8,294 bases of DNA from a virus (Duplodnaviria > Heunggongvirae > Uroviricota > Caudoviricetes), in the IMG/VR virus record IMGVR_UViG_2531839532_000007; one strand, written 5' to 3'. How positions within the stretch are numbered: position 1 is the stretch's first letter; each line of letters starts with the position of its first letter. Positions 1 to 8,294 of this stretch are shown in pieces. Under the pieces are notes generated by a model. The model had not been told where the DNA came from. It worked only from the letters and a program-made list of their open reading frames with translations, and ran no database searches. Position numbers and translations under genes: made by a program.

Positions 1-306
1 GGCTAATGAAACACGGCAGTTTGCCCGGATGTTGGGGCTTGAACCGAAGAACACGGCGGTGCGGAGTCCGGAGAGTAACGGCATAGCAGAGAGCTTCGTG
101 AAAACGATAAAGCGTGACTACATCAGTATCATGCCTAAACCAGACGGGTTAACGGCAGCAAAGAACCTTGCAGAGGCGTTCGAGCATTATAACGAATGGC
201 ATCCGCATAGTGCACTGGGTTATCGCTCGCCACGGGAATATCTGCGGCAGCAGGCCAGTAATGGGTTAAGTGATAACAGGTGTCTGGAAATATAGGGGCA
301 AATCCA
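1..306 (+). mobile_element. Right-hand end of an IS2 insertion sequence (3' part of orfB plus terminal inverted repeat); element continues left of the window
   Basis: The 1..295 translation matches the IS2 InsD C-terminus as I recall it, and the sequence ...tggaaatataggggcaaatcca ending at 306 matches the IS2 terminus from memory. The downstream gene loses its N-terminus exactly at this boundary. Confidence 0.85.
2..295 (+). CDS. insD: IS2 transposase OrfB (InsD), C-terminal fragment; 5' end lies outside the window
   Basis: ORF 29..295 is in frame with the window start; the translation ...[55 protein letters not shown]... is the integrase-core C-terminus of IS3-family OrfB as recalled for IS2. 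Confidence 0.88.
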
Positions 307-608
307 ACTATTTAGCCACAGAGAATGTTCATATTGTATTAAAAAATGATAATACAGTGTTATTAAAGGGCCTAAAAAACATTGTGTCTGTCAAATTTTC
401 AAAGGATAGGCATCTTATAGAAACGACCTCTAATAAGCTGAAATCCAGAGAGATCACATTTCAGGAATACAGAAGAAACCTTGCTAAAGCAGGAGTTTTT
501 CGGTGGGTTACAAATATCCACGAACAAAAAAGATATTACTATACCTTTGATAATTCATTACTATTTACTGAAAGCATCCAGAAAACTACACAGATCTTAC
601 CACGCTAA
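307..608 (+). pseudogene. ydfO: DUF1398-family prophage gene (YdfO/YbcV-like), 5'-truncated by the IS2 insertion
   Basis: The open frame runs through the IS2 boundary; the 100 residues after position 306 (…[59 protein letters not shown]…) contain no Met. The only in-frame start is a GTG at 270 inside IS2. Symbol is assigned from Qin synteny (next to gnsB), from memory. Confidence 0.55.
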
Positions 609-704
609 ACCATAACGTCCGGCTTCTCTCACTCCTGAGCCGGACTGCATTGGTTTAATAAAAACCATCAACAATTGTGATTTAGATATTCGGAACCATT
701 CAAA

Positions 705-733
705 TATAACAAAACCCCGTAAAAACGAGGTTT
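705..733 (-). terminator. Putative intrinsic terminator downstream of gnsB
   Basis: Minus-strand reading ACCUCG-UUUUUA-CGGGGU (6-bp stem with one G-U pair) followed by UUUGUUAUAUUU, about 30 nt after the gnsB stop. Confidence 0.4.
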
Positions 734-759
734 ATGGATAAATTTTATTATTGAATACA

Positions 760-933
760 TCAGATTAAATTAATCTTGACATCATAGCTTTCAAGACCCG
801 TCATTTTTTCCCGTGCGGTAAACTGAATACTGGTAACTTCTTTCCCGGTCTTTTTCTTAAGTTCAATAATTTTTTTTGTTATATATTCAGAAATATCTGC
901 TTCTGCTTTTGTTTTTAAGTTTTCAATATTCAT
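760..933 (-). CDS. gnsB: GnsB-like small protein (Gns family, 57 aa)
   Basis: Hand translation of the minus strand gives MMNIENLKTKAEADISEYITKKIIELKKKTGKEVTSIQFTAREKMTGLESYDVKINLI*, which matches GnsA/GnsB as I recall them. An AAGAGGA Shine-Dalgarno sits about 8 nt before the second ATG (933); the first ATG is at 936. The gene is absent from the ORF track because it is short. Confidence 0.8.
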   Translation of the reverse strand: MNIENLKTKAEADISEYITKKIIELKKKTGKEVTSIQFTAREKMTGLESYDVKINLI

Positions 934-981
934 CATTTCCTCTTTTAGTCTGTTATGACTTTCCAGTTACACAGTAAGTCG

Positions 982-987
982 ATTATA
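982..987 (-). promoter_or_regulatory. Candidate -10 element (TATAAT) of a gnsB promoter
   Basis: Perfect TATAAT on the minus strand about 45 nt upstream of the gnsB start codon; no convincing -35 at 17±1 bp spacing. Confidence 0.3.
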
Positions 988-1104
988 TGGTGCAAACGTG
1001 TAAAAGATAAGATGAAACATCGCAATAATCAACATACGATAGTCTAAATTTTACACAAACAGACAAAGAGAATTTTCCTGAATTATCAATGCAATAGCAT
1101 CAAA

Positions 1105-1335
1105 TCAACTCAAGAGCCTTATTGCTGCTTCCAGAATTTCTTCTGAAGTAACATGTCGATCCGCGGCTACATAAATGACTTTATGATCTCCGGTCAGAGA
1201 TGGAAACCCTGCGGCCATTACAGTAAGGTGTGTTTTTTCGCCATTTGGATATTCACGCATGATGGTGTTAACTCCAGTCATCGCTGGCACTACCACTGCT
1301 GGTTCAGAGTTAAAAAAAACTATGATTTTTTTCAT
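1105..1335 (-). CDS. ynfN: Small prophage protein in the YnfN position between cspI and gnsB (76 aa from ATG 1335; 51 aa from ATG 1260)
   Basis: The ORF-track entry 1105..1377 begins at a TTG. The first ATG (1335) gives MKKIIVFF…; the internal ATG at 1260 gives a 51-aa product MREYPNGEKTHLTVMAAGFPSLTGDHKVIYVAADRHVTSEEILEAAIRLLS with a GGAG about 11 nt upstream. Symbol is from synteny and the recalled 51-aa length of K-12 YnfN. Confidence 0.5.
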   Translation of the reverse strand: MKKIIVFFNSEPAVVVPAMTGVNTIMREYPNGEKTHLTVMAAGFPSLTGDHKVIYVAADRHVTSEEILEAAIRLLS

Positions 1336-1377
1336 GATGTTACCGTAGTATGTGAGTATCCATCGAATAGACACCAA

Positions 1378-1402
1378 GCAAAAAAGCTCCCGAAGGAGCC
1401 TT
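1378..1402 (-). terminator. Intrinsic terminator downstream of cspI
   Basis: Minus-strand reading AAGGCUCC-UUCG-GGAGCUUU followed by UUUUUU: a GC-rich stem closed by a UUCG tetraloop. An A-run precedes it on the plus strand, so it is partly bidirectional. Confidence 0.6.
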
Positions 1403-1606
1403 CATTTTCACTTTTTTAAATCCAACGACAGACGGCTGGCATTTAAGTATTGTGAAATATTATCAAATGTAATCATCATTGATTTACAAAAGATACATTT
1501 TGCCCCGAAAGGATTCATGTCAGAAACATCAAAAGATGATGTTCTATACTGGGAACCATGACAACACGGGCATCTAAAGTGAATATGGTTTGTAATATTG
1601 TCTACC

Positions 1607-1819
1607 TCAAAGCGCCACTACATGAACAGCGGCAGGACCTTTAGGTCCGTTCTCAATACCAAATTCAACTTCCTGATTCTCAGTTAATGTTTTGAAATCG
1701 TTGCTCTGAATTGCTGAGAAATGGACAAACACATCTTTGCTGCCATCTTTCGGCGTGATGAAACCAAAACCTTTTTCAGGGTTAAACCATTTCACTAAAC
1801 CAGTCATTTTGTTAGACAT
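1607..1819 (-). CDS. cspI: Cold-shock protein CspI (CspA family, 70 aa)
   Basis: [70 protein letters not shown] carries the RNP1/RNP2 motifs (KGFGFI, VFVHF). The leader ends in AAAGGTAATAATT-ATG, like the cspA leader. Confidence 0.95.
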
Positions 1820-1999
1820 AATTATTACCTTTTGAAGAAATTAGCCCTTGGGCAGAATGGTCCGAAAAAAAATATCAGAGAGAAAAACCAACAAGGAAAT
1901 CTCAAGAGGTACAAATAATAAAATTATAACAATGACTGCTTCAGATAAATTTGTAACAAACCAGAACACCATTAACGCATGATTAACCACCCATAGCAA
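1820..1999 (-). promoter_or_regulatory. cspI promoter (-35 TTGCTA at 1999..1994, -10 GTTAAT at 1976..1971) and ~145-nt 5' UTR
   Basis: cspA-type architecture with a 17-bp spacer and an AT-rich upstream region. The 11-mer ATGCGTTAATG spanning the -10 is identical to that of the cspB promoter in this window. Predicted leader length is about 145 nt. Confidence 0.45.
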
Positions 2000-2181
2000 G
2001 GATTACTTTTGTAAAGAAAAACACAGCAATGAAAGAATAGCTTTATTTATTAATAAAACGTGTCATTCTGATTAAGACCTTTTATCTTACCCTTAAGATT
2101 TCAGGAATTTTGGCTCATGGAAGAGTCCTTTTTATTTAAATTTTACATTCCGCGATGTAAATGTTCCGATTTAATATTACC

Positions 2182-3205
<1,024 letters not shown>

Positions 3206-3209
<4 letters not shown>

Positions 3210-3517
3210 AGATATTTATGATGAGGACGCTCGTGCTTATTGGCAGGATTTTCAATCTTAAAGGAGTACTGATGCTGCAGATAAGACTCAACTTTTTCTG
3301 ACAATTTTTCTGCTACTTCCAGGAAGACTTGCCGGACGCTCCTTCTGGCTGCTGCCTCATAAAACTCCAGCGCAGCTCCTTCAACACGGTCCATGGCGAC
3401 ATCCAGGTCAAAAATTTCACCGTCAAAGCGTTCTTTGTCCTGTAAGGCTACAGTTACCGTAACTTTATTCTCAAAATTACGGACTCCTTTCACAACCAGT
3501 TCATAGTCTTGAGTCAT
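3206..3517 (-). CDS. ydfR: DUF1327-family prophage protein (YdfR-like), 103 aa
   Basis: Intact ORF between holin and endolysin with a GAGGAGAG Shine-Dalgarno upstream of ATG 3517. Identity is by synteny and a recalled family match. Confidence 0.75.
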
Positions 3518-3521
3518 TGGA

Positions 3522-3737
3522 TTACTCTCCTCTCGCAGCCTTACGCCTGTCTTCTTTAATCTTGAAATAAAGATTTGTCAGATACGTCAGCAGGCCAAAA
3601 ACCAGGCTACCCAGCACACCGATTGCAGCCCACTGTGACGGAGTTACTTTATCGAGTAACTGCAATGCCCAGAAACCAGCATTACCCGCCGATGTGCCAT
3701 AGGCAACACCTGTTGTTAACTTATCCATTGATTTCAT
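3522..3737 (-). CDS. essQ: Class II holin / pinholin (phage 21 S-like), 71 aa with dual-start motif
   Basis: [71 protein letters not shown] has two transmembrane segments and a charged C-terminus. Met1 and Met4 give the holin/antiholin dual start. The ORF-track extension to 3812 starts at a GTG with no Shine-Dalgarno. Confidence 0.85.
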
Positions 3738-3956
3738 ATCCTCACCCCGATGTACACGGATGGTGCAATATGTTTGAAAAGATCGGAGTCTACGGGGTAG
3801 TTTTGACAGCACACGTTGTTCTCAACGGCGCTAAAAAAACATACACATTAAAAATGTGGGTAATTATTTTGAAAGAAAGTCATATATAAAATAATAATAC
3901 GAGAAATGTTTTCATATTTAGTGTACTGTATACGGCCATTTATACAGGAAAAGCCT

Positions 3957-4127
3957 ATGTCAGAACGTAAAAACTCAAAATCACGCCGTAATTATCTCGT
4001 TAAATGTTCCTGCCCAAACTGCACCCAAGAGTCAGAACACAGTTTTTCAAGAGTACAAAAAGGTGCCCTTTTGATCTGCCCTCATTGCAACAAAGTATTC
4101 CAGACAAATCTTAAAGCTGTAGCCTGA
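3957..4127 (+). CDS. Small zinc-ribbon protein (56 aa, CxxC…CxxC), antisense to the late operon
   Basis: MSERKNSKSRRNYLVKCSCPNCTQESEHSFSRVQKGALLICPHCNKVFQTNLKAVA with an AGGAAA Shine-Dalgarno 6 nt before ATG 3957. The ORF-track start at 3906 has a poorer Shine-Dalgarno. It may correspond to a small Qin protein annotated in recent K-12 releases, but I cannot name it with confidence. Confidence 0.5.
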   Translation: MSERKNSKSRRNYLVKCSCPNCTQESEHSFSRVQKGALLICPHCNKVFQTNLKAVA

Positions 4128-4180
4128 TTGATTTTATTAGTAACAAGTATTTTTTATATTTTAATAATATATTTAAAGCA

Positions 4181-4208
4181 GATAATAAAAAACCCGCCTG
4201 AGCGGGTT
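4181..4208 (-). terminator. Intrinsic terminator (strong on minus strand, weak on plus) between cspB and the zinc-ribbon ORF
   Basis: Perfect 7-bp stem AACCCGC-CTGA-GCGGGTT; the minus-strand reading is followed by UUUUAUUAUC. It lies about 280 nt downstream of the cspB stop. Confidence 0.55.
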
Positions 4209-4490
4209 TGAGATTGTGGTGCTTTTTGTGGGAGTCATCCACTTACGCACTTTGTTTTGCCATGCCAGCAGTTAGCTTCTGCTGTAAAACTATTCATGCA
4301 GCAAACCTGCACTTCACCACAATGGTTAGCATACTTTTCCTGATTAAGATTTTGCCAAATATGCTAGCCATTGTTTCATGTATTGGACCTCCTTACTTTT
4401 TATTAAAGAGATCCAATATTCACTACTCTGTCCGTATCTCTACTCAGGCATCAGCCTTCTTCGTTATCGTATACAGACGAGCGATGAATT

Positions 4491-4706
4491 TTAATCAGTA
4501 ATGATGACATTTGCTGCTGCAGGACCTTTAGCACCACTCTCTATAGAGAAGGTAACCTTTTGACCTTCAAATAAGGTTCGATAATTATCATTCTGAATCG
4601 CAGAAAAATGCACAAACACATCTTTACTACCATCAACAGGAGAAATAAAGCCGAAACCTTTATCAGCGTTAAACCATTTTACTAAACCAGTCATTTTATT
4701 TGACAT
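4491..4706 (-). CDS. cspB: Cold-shock protein CspB (CspA family, 71 aa)
   Basis: [71 protein letters not shown] with RNP motifs; AAGGAA Shine-Dalgarno upstream; divergent from cspF as in K-12. Confidence 0.95.
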
Positions 4707-4849
4707 TCTACATTCCTTAACTTGAGCCTTTCGGCATAAATGGTTTGCATAACAGAAACGACTTCGTACTTAATTGGAGAGACTCAAAGAAGGAATAAGT
4801 GAATAACACCTGAAATGAGAACTGCTTTAGTAAACTACTTCGTATATCG

Positions 4850-4902
4850 TCTGTTCTTCAAACCGACGCAATCATTAACGCATAGTTGAACATATGAAGC
4901 AA
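4850..4902 (-). promoter_or_regulatory. cspB promoter (-35 TTGCTT at 4902..4897, -10 GTTAAT at 4879..4874) with a cold-box-like element (TGAAGAACAGA, 4860..4850)
   Basis: 17-bp spacer and AT-rich UP-like region. The element just after the predicted start site matches the cspA cold box TGACGTACAGA at 9 of 11 positions. Predicted 5' UTR is about 160 nt. Confidence 0.45.
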
Positions 4903-5006
4903 TGTTTATTTTAGACATCCAGCCATCTTCAACCCCATCAAAAAACTATAGCTTTCTTCAGGAACGTGTGTATAGTGCGCCAAGTTATCAGTATTAAGGA
5001 ATTTTT

Positions 5007-5219
5007 TTGTCCCGTAAAATGACAGGAATTGTCAAAACCTTTGACGGCAAAAGCGGCAAGGGTCTTATCACCCCATCCGATGGTCGTATCGATGTCCAGC
5101 TTCATGTTTCAGCGCTCAATCTCCGCGATGCAGAAGAAATTACCACCGGATTACGCGTGGAATTTTGCCGGATAAATGGTCTGCGTGGCCCTTCAGCTGC
5201 CAATGTTTACCTTTCATGA
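5007..5219 (+). CDS. cspF: Cold-shock-protein paralogue CspF (70 aa)
   Basis: [70 protein letters not shown]. The 70-aa form starts at a TTG (5007) with AAGGA 8 nt upstream; the first ATG is at 5019. The RNP motifs are degenerate, as expected for CspF/CspH. Confidence 0.88.
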
Positions 5220-5273
5220 GCTATATTAAAGCTTTAATTTCAGGCCCCATCGGATCACACATGGAGAGTTTTT

Positions 5274-5363
5274 ATGAATAACCCCGTCTGTCTTGATGAC
5301 TGGTTGATTGGCTTTAAAAGCTTATGCTGTACTTTGGCCGTAATAGCTCTGCTAATAATATAA
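5274..5363 (+). CDS. Candidate small hydrophobic protein (29 aa) downstream of cspF
   Basis: GGAGAG Shine-Dalgarno 7 nt before ATG 5274; product [29 protein letters not shown] has a hydrophobic C-terminal half. It lies between cspF and the plus-strand terminator at 5512..5548. Sequence-only prediction. Confidence 0.3.
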
Positions 5364-5511
5364 TAAGCAGACTCATTGTGTTTAGGGACATTGTACTGGA
5401 AGAAAACATTTTAAACATCAGGCAAATAACCAAGTCACCAGCTAAATAATAAGTTAACAGACATGAGTCCCGGGATGAGATTCAACATTACCATTGCCCC
5501 ATTTAAAGCAC

Positions 5512-5548
5512 AAAACCCGCTCATCAGCGGGTTTTCTACTTTTTCTTA
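5512..5548. terminator. Bidirectional intrinsic terminator: cspF terminator on the plus strand and tR'-like terminator of the late leader on the minus strand
   Basis: Stem AAAACCCGCT-CATC-AGCGGGTTTT (perfect 8-10 bp). On the plus strand it is followed by UUCUACUUUUUCUU; on the minus strand by UUUUGUGCUUU. Confidence 0.6.
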
Positions 5549-5565
5549 ACGTCGGGTATACAAAG

Positions 5566-5609
5566 CCCATCGTTGAAAAAATTTTATCCATATTTTTTGA
5601 AAAATGCAA
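5566..5609 (-). promoter_or_regulatory. pR'-like late promoter with sigma70-dependent pause element (target of the Q antiterminator)
   Basis: Minus-strand reading TTGCAT-17 bp-TAAAAT-TTTTTC-AACGATGGG, beginning 32 nt after the Q stop. It parallels lambda pR' (TTGACT-17-TAAATT-TGACTC-AACGATGGG), including the -10-like AACGAT pause motif, as recalled. Confidence 0.6.
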
Positions 5610-5640
5610 ACATCATGTCGCCATCTTCAGCAAAAATCAT

Positions 5641-6393
5641 TTATCTCGTCACCTTCCTCAATTGCGCTTCCGCGTATGCTTCTTCCTGCCAGCACTTTGT
5701 TACCAGTTTACCAATGACGTCCGCATACCCCTTATACCACTGATAATCGGTCAGGTCTGGTACCAGCTTCTGGACATGACGTCGTGCCAGCGTGGTCGGT
5801 AAACGACTAAACCGGTTTCCATTACAACGCCCACAAATCTTATATACCGGTACGCCATGAAACCGGGTTCTTTTTTCATCCAGAACAATCCCTTTACCCT
5901 TACACCCTCTGCACGCTGTGCTGGCTTCGCCCTTACCATGGCAATGCTGACATAGTTCCTTCACCCATTCTTCCTTGATTACAGATTCCCCGCGTCTGTA
6001 GTGTTTCACCACTTCGCGCAATACATTATAAAATCCCGTACCTGAACAATGCTCACAGCGAGCCTTACTTGCCGCAGACCTGGAGTAATCAGCAAAGGCA
6101 AAACTCACGAGGTAAGGAATAATCTGTAACCGGATTTCTTCACTCAATTTGTTCAATGTCGGGTTATCCAGTGCCATCGCGTAATTTAGCAGGCCTTCAA
6201 TCGCAAACTGAGGGTCCTGAACACCAACTTTTGCCAGAAATAAGGCCAACCCAAGTGGTGCTTTCGACTGCACCATCCCCTGCGCTGCCATTACATCCGT
6301 AATTGTTAAACAACCGGTGCCTGTCGCTGGAGCGTCATCGCTCAATTTTGGAGATTTTGGGGAGTAATATTTTGGTAAGGCTTCAAGGTTCAT
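5641..6393 (-). CDS. quuQ: Late-gene antiterminator Q (250 aa from ATG 6393)
   Basis: Several CxxC/HCHGKG zinc-binding motifs (CEHCSGTG, CQHCHGKG, CRGCKGKG, CGRCNG) and a position directly upstream of a pR'-like promoter. GGAG lies 7 nt before ATG 6393; the ORF-track start at 6423 is a TTG. Length matches K-12 QuuQ as recalled. Confidence 0.88.
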   Translation of the reverse strand: MNLEALPKYYSPKSPKLSDDAPATGTGCLTITDVMAAQGMVQSKAPLGLALFLAKVGVQDPQFAIEGLLNYAMALDNPTLNKLSEEIRLQIIPYLVSFAFADYSRSAASKARCEHCSGTGFYNVLREVVKHYRRGESVIKEEWVKELCQHCHGKGEASTACRGCKGKGIVLDEKRTRFHGVPVYKICGRCNGNRFSRLPTTLARRHVQKLVPDLTDYQWYKGYADVIGKLVTKCWQEEAYAEAQLRKVTR

Positions 6394-6406
6394 GCTCGTT
6401 CTCCAC

Positions 6407-7456
6407 TTACGCCAGTACGCCAATTGCCAGCGCGCGATCGATAAAACGAAATATCAGCTCCAGTTGGGAGCCATACTTATCTTCAAATGCCACTGTATCC
6501 GTATGCAGCTCGTTGTGATGCTTTCTGCACAAAGGCAACACAAAGAGATCATGTGCTTTTGTTCCCATTCCGCCCTGCCCGTGACCAATCAGATGATGCG
6601 GATCGTCGGCTGGCATACCGCAGCAAGCACACGGCTGTGTCTTAACCCAACGTGTGTATTTCTCCTTAACCCAGCGGCGACGTTTAGGCAGCTTCATGAA
6701 AGATTCCGGAGACTCTGGATCAACGGTGATGCTTACCACCGTCTTTTCCTGTGGTGATTTTTGTTGCTGGTGGGCGTAAGGCAACGGTGCAAGATTTTTT
6801 GTGCGTTGTTTCAATATGCTGGTGGCGGTCTGCTCTCCCGGTACGATGTCGCTTTCGCGGTACACCGAGCAGATTTTTTCCGCTGGTAATCCCAGCGAAC
6901 GACGCGATACAGCCTCAGGTAGTGCATCCACCACCTGATTGCAGACCGCCCACCAGGATAATTCAGCCAAAGATAATTCCCGCTCCTGCGTACCGCTTAT
7001 TGCGTGACGGATGACGTCAATCACCCATGCTGTCAGATTTTGTTGAGCAAGCAGCTCCAGTGATTCCGATGTCTGGTCACGCAGTTGGTTGTCGCAGTGC
7101 CAGCACAACACCATTGCGCCGGTACCATAACGGTGAATGACTGTTTCAGTGTGATGGTAATCGCCATTAGGCCACTGGCAGGATGTAACATGACGTAATA
7201 GCCAGTCGGACAATGCGCCAACGCCGCCAGCAGCACGAATCACCCGTTCGTTACTAAAAAACGGCAGCAATGTTTTGTCTTCCGCCAGCGGCTGGCGAAC
7301 GGCAGGAACGACTCCGGATGGCAGATTACGCATGCTTTTTGGTTCCGGTTCCACCAGCACTCGAGGATTATGAAATATCTGTATGGATTCACGGCCCGGC
7401 TTAAGGACCACCAGCCCAAGCTCAGGCACCAGAACAGGTCTAAGTAATACCCGCAC
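6407..7456 (-). CDS. ydfU: DUF968-family protein with C-terminal HNH/His-Me-finger-like motif (YdfU-like), 349 aa from GTG 7456
   Basis: C-terminal motif …QPCACCGMPADDPHHLIGHGQGGMGTKAHDLFVLPLCRKHHNELH… Strong GGAGG Shine-Dalgarno 4-5 nt before GTG 7456; the ORF-track start at 7495 is also a GTG but lacks a Shine-Dalgarno. Stop lies 13 nt before the Q start. Confidence 0.8.
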   Translation of the reverse strand: MRVLLRPVLVPELGLVVLKPGRESIQIFHNPRVLVEPEPKSMRNLPSGVVPAVRQPLAEDKTLLPFFSNERVIRAAGGVGALSDWLLRHVTSCQWPNGDYHHTETVIHRYGTGAMVLCWHCDNQLRDQTSESLELLAQQNLTAWVIDVIRHAISGTQERELSLAELSWWAVCNQVVDALPEAVSRRSLGLPAEKICSVYRESDIVPGEQTATSILKQRTKNLAPLPYAHQQQKSPQEKTVVSITVDPESPESFMKLPKRRRWVKEKYTRWVKTQPCACCGMPADDPHHLIGHGQGGMGTKAHDLFVLPLCRKHHNELHTDTVAFEDKYGSQLELIFRFIDRALAIGVLA

Positions 7457-7457
7457 G

Positions 7458-7736
7458 TTACCTCCAGATCCGTTGCTGGAAAGTGCGGGACGCACGTGGT
7501 GGGCGTTCGGAATAAGGCAGCCTGACAGAGATTATCCAGTGCCGATAGTCGAGACTGAGAGCTTTCTTAACCTCGAACCCGCGCCTGCGGTAAGAATGAA
7601 TCAGCCATTCGGCCTGTTCTGCAGTGCATGGAGGGTGCTGGAACCATTCAGACTTGAATGCGTGAGAATACCGCCCGTGCGTGCAGGCAAGAACGGGCGA
7701 ATTATCAGAATTGTAATATTTTGCGTTGCGTGCCAT
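7458..7736 (-). CDS. Hypothetical 92-aa protein translationally coupled to the DUF968 gene
   Basis: ATG 7736 with GGAG 8 nt upstream; the TAA stop (7458..7460) sits inside the ydfU Shine-Dalgarno (GGAGGTAAcGTG). Product MARNAKYYNSDNSPVLACTHGRYSHAFKSEWFQHPPCTAEQ… is Cys/His-containing; no family recognised. Confidence 0.5.
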   Translation of the reverse strand: MARNAKYYNSDNSPVLACTHGRYSHAFKSEWFQHPPCTAEQAEWLIHSYRRRGFEVKKALSLDYRHWIISVRLPYSERPPRASRTFQQRIWR

Positions 7737-7802
7737 CGGTTTTCTCCGGTGGCACGGTGTTACTCAGCGGGAGTTCAGCCCCGCGCAAGATTGTAGATGA
7801 GT

Positions 7803-8054
7803 TTATTCTCCTGAAAAAGCAGAAAAGCCAGCTTTTATTCCGATCTCTTTCAATGCCTGTAATGAAGTGACAAACTCACCTTCGCGCAAGATAAATCCGT
7901 CCGTGACCCGAGCATCCACAAAATTAATTAACGCAGCCCCATTCTTTCGCAAACACATAATGCGGTAATGACTAACAAGATTTCCATTTTCAACGCACAC
8001 AGCATAGAGGCCATCTTCACAAAAAATTTTACGCAGTTCTTCGATGTTCATCAT
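7803..8054 (-). CDS. rem: Rem-like small prophage protein (83 aa), function unknown
   Basis: ATGATG start with AAGGA 6 nt upstream. Length and position (between the hok toxin and ydfU) match K-12 rem as recalled; I cannot verify the sequence itself. Confidence 0.6.
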   Translation of the reverse strand: MMNIEELRKIFCEDGLYAVCVENGNLVSHYRIMCLRKNGAALINFVDARVTDGFILREGEFVTSLQALKEIGIKAGFSAFSGE

Positions 8055-8170
8055 CAGAATCCTTCCGGATAATTAGCTCTCCCCTTTAAGGGACCATCCC
8101 TCTTATCCCTGCGCGCTACTTAAGTATTTTTGATTCTATTCCGGCACCGTCCAGAACTTCAAACGCGTTG

Positions 8171-8202
8171 AAAATAAAAACAAAAACCCGCCGAAGCGGG
8201 TT
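8171..8202 (-). terminator. Intrinsic terminator of the upstream (hok-containing) transcription unit
   Basis: Stem AACCCGC-CGAA-GCGGGTT; the minus-strand reading is followed by UUUUUGUUUUUAUUUU. It sits about 70 nt after the hok-like stop codon. Confidence 0.6.
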
Positions 8203-8270
8203 AAGTGCGGGTGCGTTGAGGATGCCTGCCACATCAGAGGTGGCGAGGGATTTCTCCCCCGCCGGGTCTC

Positions 8271-8294
8271 TTACTCCTCAGGTTCGTAAGCTGT
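8271..8294 (-). CDS. hokD: Hok-family type I toxin (HokD/RelF-like), C-terminal 7 codons plus stop; rest of gene outside the window
   Basis: Minus-strand translation of the window edge gives …TAYEPEE*, which matches the Hok/Gef/RelF C-terminus (…EVAVFTAYEPEE) as recalled. Very short fragment. Confidence 0.5.
   Translation of the reverse strand, partial: TAYEPEE

Follow-up and report, generated by a model that had tools for sequence, protein, structure and literature searches.

The first 306 bases of the window, meaning the whole 8294 nt stretch of DNA analysed here, are the 3′ part of a complete IS2 isoform that lies within ydfO, a gene in the Qin cryptic prophage of Escherichia coli that encodes a DUF1398 protein. 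An insertion of IS2 disrupting a DUF1398 gene had been proposed from a sequence-only reading of the window, and this core claim was borne out. The architecture of the insertion, its target site duplication (TSD), the empty site and the truncation of the domain are established. The consequence, with a probability of about 0.9, is a plain null allele of ydfO, in which the function would be lost and the 3′ remnant of the gene would not be expressed. The kind of event is already known and this example is already annotated in RefSeq, where two partial pseudogenes flank an IS3-family transposase. It is a textbook case of insertional inactivation of a dispensable cryptic-prophage gene and matters little beyond that.

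The whole window is an exact match to E. coli strain 300709 (accession number NZ_CP025903.1, 100 % identity). When bases 1–1000 of the window were used as a megablast query against 5426 complete E. coli genomes, full-length matches were found in only two genomes, 300709 (100 %) and WS4437A-1 (99.9 %). In the other matches listed, including K-12 MG1655, the similarity begins exactly at base 307 and the matching sequence is annotated as ydfO and gnsB. The IS2-filled site is present in 2 of the 5426 genomes, and the uninterrupted ydfO site was found at ≥99 % identity in 1175 records. Bases 307–8294 of the window correspond to the Qin cryptic prophage and are 99.975 % identical to K-12 MG1655, with a single 1 nt indel and one substitution the only differences over 7988 bp. 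Relative to the K-12 record, the window has an extra A within an A-run at base 1312 in ynfN (minus strand), and this gene is intact in the window but frameshifted according to the annotation of the K-12 assembly compared. The substitution is at base 6831 in ydfU (minus strand), and the protein accession differs. No match was found in bases 1–608 when Rfam was searched at gathering thresholds. The only Rfam matches in the window were two cspA thermoregulators, at bases 1580–1965 (minus strand, 112.8 bits) and 4475–4867 (minus strand, 158.8 bits), which overlap cspI and cspB and reach across their upstream leaders, as expected for the cold-shock paralogues of Qin. The features at and around the IS2 junction are listed in Table 1.

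Table 1. Features in the first 936 bases of the window
Feature	Position	Strand	Basis or remark
IS2 3′ part, nt 1026–1331 of the complete 1331 bp isoform	1–306	+	Window starts within the element
IS2 OrfB/OrfAB transposase C-terminus, 97 codons and TAG stop (293–295)	2–295	+	Pfam rve_3 (integrase core), E 1.9e-19
IRR, 41 bp, ending in GGGGCAAATCCA	266–306	+	IRL/IRR alignment; comparison with K-12 IS2
Chimeric ORF, 112 aa: 12 IS2 residues, junction Asn and YdfO 38–136	270–608	+	Mechanical ORF listing
TGGAAA, inferred outward −35 hexamer	285–290	+	Pjunc geometry
ACTAT, right copy of the 5 bp TSD	307–311		L001 4307–4311; left copy L001 2971–2975
ydfO 3′ remnant, codons 38–136 and stop	309–608	+	100 % identity to K-12 ydfO; native start codon absent
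Hairpin, 9 bp stem GTCCGGCTT...GAGCCGGAC, no T-run, just past ydfO stop	617–645	+	RNA fold of bases 601–760
gnsB, convergent with ydfO	760–936	−	Pfam GnsAB_toxin, E 3.3e-35; RefSeq gnsB at 760–933

Comparison of the 300709 locus (L001) with the uninterrupted K-12 locus (L002), a check that had been suggested along with the original proposal, located the insertion point and identified the 5 bp duplication as ACTAT. A complete IS2 of 1331 bp occupies bases 2976–4306 of L001 and is flanked by this sequence on both sides. The K-12 empty site includes a single ACTAT (L002 3001–3005), which corresponds to nt 110–114 of ydfO and places IS2 after codon 38 (codon 37/38). When IS2 and one ACTAT were removed from L001 in silico, the resulting sequence matched that of K-12 from ynfO to ydfO with 0 mismatches in 731 bp. 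The 5 bp duplication and the perfect restoration of the empty site indicate that IS2 arrived by one simple transposition, and exclude a deletion or an IS-mediated rearrangement. As the whole IS2, both copies of the duplicated target and the corresponding empty site were recovered, the junction is real and not a chance resemblance.

As nothing to the left of IS2 is visible in the window and the strain carries many IS2 copies, the element might have been thought to form the boundary of a rearrangement or deletion, for example one produced by IS2–IS2 recombination that removed the 5′ end of ydfO together with adjoining DNA. The identical 5 bp direct repeats and flanks that are contiguous in K-12 make this scarcely credible, and the 5′ fragment of ydfO, ynfO and further Qin genes are found directly to the left of IS2. 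The duplicated target and the collinearity of the flanks refute this explanation. The proposal that IS2 marks the edge of the intact region was likewise not sustained, as ynfO and Qin remnants continue leftward and the window boundary merely falls inside IS2. The order leftward from IS2 is collinear, and includes the ydfO 5′ fragment, ynfO, an ISCro1 and then further Qin remnants, namely terminase, portal and tail remnants, tfaQ, pinQ, ydfK and the ydfJ attachment side. ISCro1, an IS66-family element, is located approximately 0.9 kb to the left of IS2 (bases 13407–16104 of L005, a 300709 locus), with ynfO on one side and a nohA-like small terminase gene on the other. When placed on the K-12 sequence, the two flanks of ISCro1 share approximately 10 nt, indicating that this element too arrived by simple insertion and duplicated its target. 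The left part of Qin in 300709 (L005 8000–13400) keeps more degraded structural genes than K-12 Qin, including those for terminase, portal, head–tail joining and tail assembly as well as host-specificity J fragments.

The IS2 copy in 300709 begins with TAGACTGGCCCCCTGAATCTCC and ends with GGGGCAAATCCA, its tips being TAGACTGG on the left and CAAATCCA on the right, in keeping with the 5′-TA and CA-3′ ends of IS2. The terminal repeats, a 42 bp IRL and a 41 bp IRR, align with one gap, and repeat lengths of 41 and 42 bp have been reported for IS2 (PMC3299598). The terminal repeat had been predicted to end at base 306. In agreement, the similarity of the flank to other genomes starts at base 307, and bases 207–306 of the window align to the right end of the IS2 copy from K-12 strain MC4100 (annotated in RefSeq as 'IS3-like element IS2 family transposase'), which was used as the reference. 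The junction thus matches a genuine IS2 end. The outermost 26 bp, TGTCTGGAAATATAGGGGCAAATCCA, are identical in the two copies, and the only mismatch between the IRR and that of K-12 IS2 is at position 27 from the tip. Over their whole lengths, which are equal, the two copies differ at 54 nucleotides (95.94 % identity). Relative to the proteins of K-12 IS2, amino acid identity is 100 % for OrfA and 95.8 % for OrfB, and both copies have the A6G frameshift window (AAAAAAG) at nt 409. The feature named 'IS3 family transposase, programmed frameshift' in RefSeq ends at the same position as the OrfB stop.

By the ISfinder convention, isoforms share >90 % DNA identity or >95 % transposase identity, and the identity of the element to the reference IS2 falls within this range. 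The length, the DNA identity, the repeats, the frameshift window and the identical right tip together identify the element as an IS2 isoform. This isoform is present in 11 places on the 300709 chromosome (NZ_CP025903.1), with at least one further copy that is 100 % identical, and an identical copy is found on the 60 kb plasmid of the same strain (NZ_CP025905.1, bases 10011–11341). The identical chromosomal and plasmid copies indicate that the isoform has apparently been active recently. The same copy pattern was seen in WS4437A-1. This suggests that the isoform has recently expanded in the lineage that includes these two strains.

The two genomes with IS2 in ydfO were sequenced independently, are of different origin (Mozambique and Saudi Arabia) and have the same IS2 junction. 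Because the ISCro1 insertion upstream of ydfO is also common to both, we conclude that they inherited one IS2 event. In WS4437A-1 (L004 2951–3000), the ydfO junction has two tandem copies of the 25 bp that begin the IS2 left repeat (TAGACTGGCCCCCTGAATCTCCAGA), compared with one copy in 300709. This tandem may be either a real duplication of the end or an assembly error. IS elements are a frequent cause of misassembly, and together with this odd duplication that might raise the question of whether the junction itself is a collapsed or misjoined repeat placed in ydfO by the assembler. The chance of this is negligible, as the same junction is found in two independent complete genomes and the precise 5 bp TSD is the signature of real transposition. 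An assembly artefact was rejected on these grounds.

In K-12, ydfO is 136 codons long and the initiator Met is the only Met in the 136 aa protein. The NMR structure in PDB entry 2HH8 is of full-length YdfO. Pfam DUF1398 (PF07166) covers residues 8–126 of the intact protein, corresponding to profile positions 1–119. In 300709 this gene is in two pieces, both already recorded in RefSeq as partial pseudogenes. The window does not include the 5′ fragment (L001 2862–2975), which retains the native upstream region, with the promoter region and ribosome-binding site. This fragment encodes 38 residues followed at once by a TAG stop codon formed by the three outermost bases of IS2 on its left side, and includes DUF1398 profile positions 1–31. 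The presence of this fragment with its native upstream region to the left of IS2 indicates that the start of the gene was displaced, not deleted. The statement that the insertion had removed the start of the gene was therefore incorrect, codons 1–38 being intact beyond IS2. It had also been considered that the gene might naturally start downstream of base 306, but the start codon of the intact homologue is 114 nt upstream of the point at which IS2 inserted.

The 3′ remnant, named in RefSeq as 'DUF1398 family protein, incomplete, missing N-terminus', scores 109–110 bits against Pfam DUF1398 (gathering cut-off 22), and the match covers profile positions 31–119 of 119. Of the 119 positions, 90 are retained, but the remnant is not a complete domain with its own start, as the first 30 profile positions are missing and there is no ATG. 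A reading frame that runs on out of the IS2 end, with no Met for 100 residues past the junction, had been described, and both observations were confirmed by the ORF at bases 270–608, which spans the junction, and by its translation.

An outward-reading −35 has been described in the right end of IS2 (PMC3219604), and fusion promoters formed by IS2 have been documented at ampC, acrEF and neoR (PMC3219604; PMC9330008). In the IS2 junction promoter, Pjunc, the −35 of the right end is combined with the −10 of the left end at a mandatory spacing of 17 bp via a 1 bp junction spacer (PMC3299598; PMC3219604), while the element's own promoter is weak and repressed by OrfA (PMC3299598). The position of the −35 in the window was deduced from the 17 bp rule, assuming that TAGACT, at the left-repeat tip, serves as the −10. 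Downstream of this TGGAAA, the hexamers at spacings of 16, 17 and 18 bp are ACTATT, CTATTT and TATTTA, which match the −10 consensus at 3, 1 and 3 of 6 positions, respectively, and none of these has both A at position 2 and T at position 6. No usable −10 was found when spacings of 16–19 bp were searched by hand, and the flank does not supply the −10 at 17 bp that a fusion promoter requires. A scan of both strands of bases 1–1100 for the sigma-70 consensus found 0 promoter-like sites, compared with 3.7 expected in shuffled sequences. The general statement that IS2 ends supply outward promoter elements therefore agrees with the literature, but at this particular junction no usable −10 accompanies the putative −35. 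Low-level read-through into the remnant, from the weak promoter of IS2 or from prophage promoters upstream such as that of ynfO/ydfO, may nevertheless occur.

The initiation codons available to the remnant were also examined. GTG 270 lies within the IRR, where it overlaps the last part of orfB in a different frame. The ribosome-binding site at this codon had been described as weak, and this was supported by the calculated pairing with the anti-Shine–Dalgarno sequence, which was −3.4 kcal/mol in the upstream 20 nt, with a spacing of 2 nt that is unsuitable for initiation. Pairing equal to or better than this is found at 20 % of window positions. The corresponding values for the native ydfO ATG are −6.2 kcal/mol and 5 nt, placing it in the top 4 %. 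GTG 270 had been named as the only in-frame initiator, but GTG 357 and GTG 384 in the remnant are also in frame, and the Shine–Dalgarno sequences of both are poor or badly spaced. An AlphaFold2 prediction for the 112 aa chimera, made with no alignment, had a mean pLDDT of 37.9 and was uninformative.

It could be argued that the remnant is expressed, via a fusion promoter or IS2 read-through, and translated from GTG 270 as a 112 aa IS2–YdfO chimera that is partially active or has an altered activity. An open frame extends from base 270 to base 608, the right end of IS2 faces the remnant, and both the outward −35 and the IS2 fusion promoters at other loci are on record. We consider this improbable. 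The hexamers at 16, 17 and 18 bp are poor −10 matches, the published junction promoter requires exactly 17 bp, and promoter-like sites are absent from bases 1–1100. The Shine–Dalgarno pairing at GTG 270 is unremarkable and badly spaced, and a product starting there would lack the beginning of the DUF1398 domain. The suggestion of a chimeric product was correct in that the frame is open, but overstated.

Effects on genes beyond the remnant were also considered. A hairpin just past the ydfO stop codon is part of the native locus and was not called in a terminator scan. Beyond it, nine annotated genes in succession (gnsB, ynfN, ynfR, ynfQ, cspI, rzpQ, rrrQ, ydfR and essD) lie on the minus strand, and no gene on the plus strand is reached before ynfU, which starts approximately 3.3 kb downstream. 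Because of this arrangement, a transcript reading outward from IS2 would be antisense to the genes from gnsB to essD and would not activate them. The possibility that expression of downstream genes is affected by outward promoters was thus not supported, as there is no gene nearby for IS2 to switch on. It is very improbable that the chimera (GTG 270 to base 608, 112 aa) or the 38-residue peptide is made and active, or that transcription from the IS2 right end, antisense into gnsB, changes the expression of that gene.

The most probable history, leading to a null allele, is that a complete and apparently active IS2 isoform transposed once, by a simple insertion, into the ydfO gene of Qin in a common ancestor of 300709 and WS4437A-1, and that the target ACTAT was duplicated on integration. 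The native promoter and ribosome-binding site would now drive only a 38-residue peptide that ends at the TAG supplied by IS2. The 3′ remnant of 99 codons, with no ATG, no good Shine–Dalgarno sequence and no recognizable promoter, would be silent. The insertion can be used as a lineage marker common to 300709 and WS4437A-1, and 300709 provides a natural ydfO-disrupted strain for studies of YdfO. In previous work, ydfO was strongly but transiently induced by an ionic liquid (PMC4077768), and overexpression of YdfO is cited in the same article as giving higher resistance to oxidative stress. In another study, ydfO loss was listed along with other changes in mutants resistant to phage, and no role was assigned to it (PMC8711792).

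A parallel for outward transcription is the ampC fusion promoter, in which the right end of IS2, with its outward −35, likewise abuts host DNA in the same orientation. The ampC case (Jaurin and Normark 1983), as it is cited in PMC9330008, had a functional host −10 at 17 bp, whereas here there is none at 16–18 bp. A further difference is that this strand of the window offers no intact gene for IS2 to activate. The element itself is like K-12 IS2 in length, repeats, termini, the orfA/orfB overlap and frameshift window, and the 5 bp target duplication. It is distinguished from it in being an isoform and not the K-12 reference copy, and in that the RefSeq name of the transposase is only 'IS3 family transposase'.

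Other IS are also found at this locus. In strain B-1109 (L008), ydfO is split by IS1A in an independent insertion, and in strain 7/2 (L009) and at least six other genomes among the matches listed, an IS1 lies between ydfO and gnsB. These insertions are in the same dispensable, AT-rich prophage region, but the IS family and the positions differ from those of the IS2 in the window. The independent IS1 insertions in other strains indicate that the ydfO–gnsB locus tolerates disruption, and the AT-rich ydfO–gnsB stretch is a recurrent IS target, to which the insertion described here adds one more case of IS traffic. Both pieces of the gene, the 5′ fragment and the remnant, have 100 % DNA identity to ydfO of K-12 MG1655, in which the neighbours of ydfO are likewise ynfO and gnsB. 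The gene is uninterrupted in K-12, and is here split by the 1331 bp of IS2 and 5 duplicated bp.
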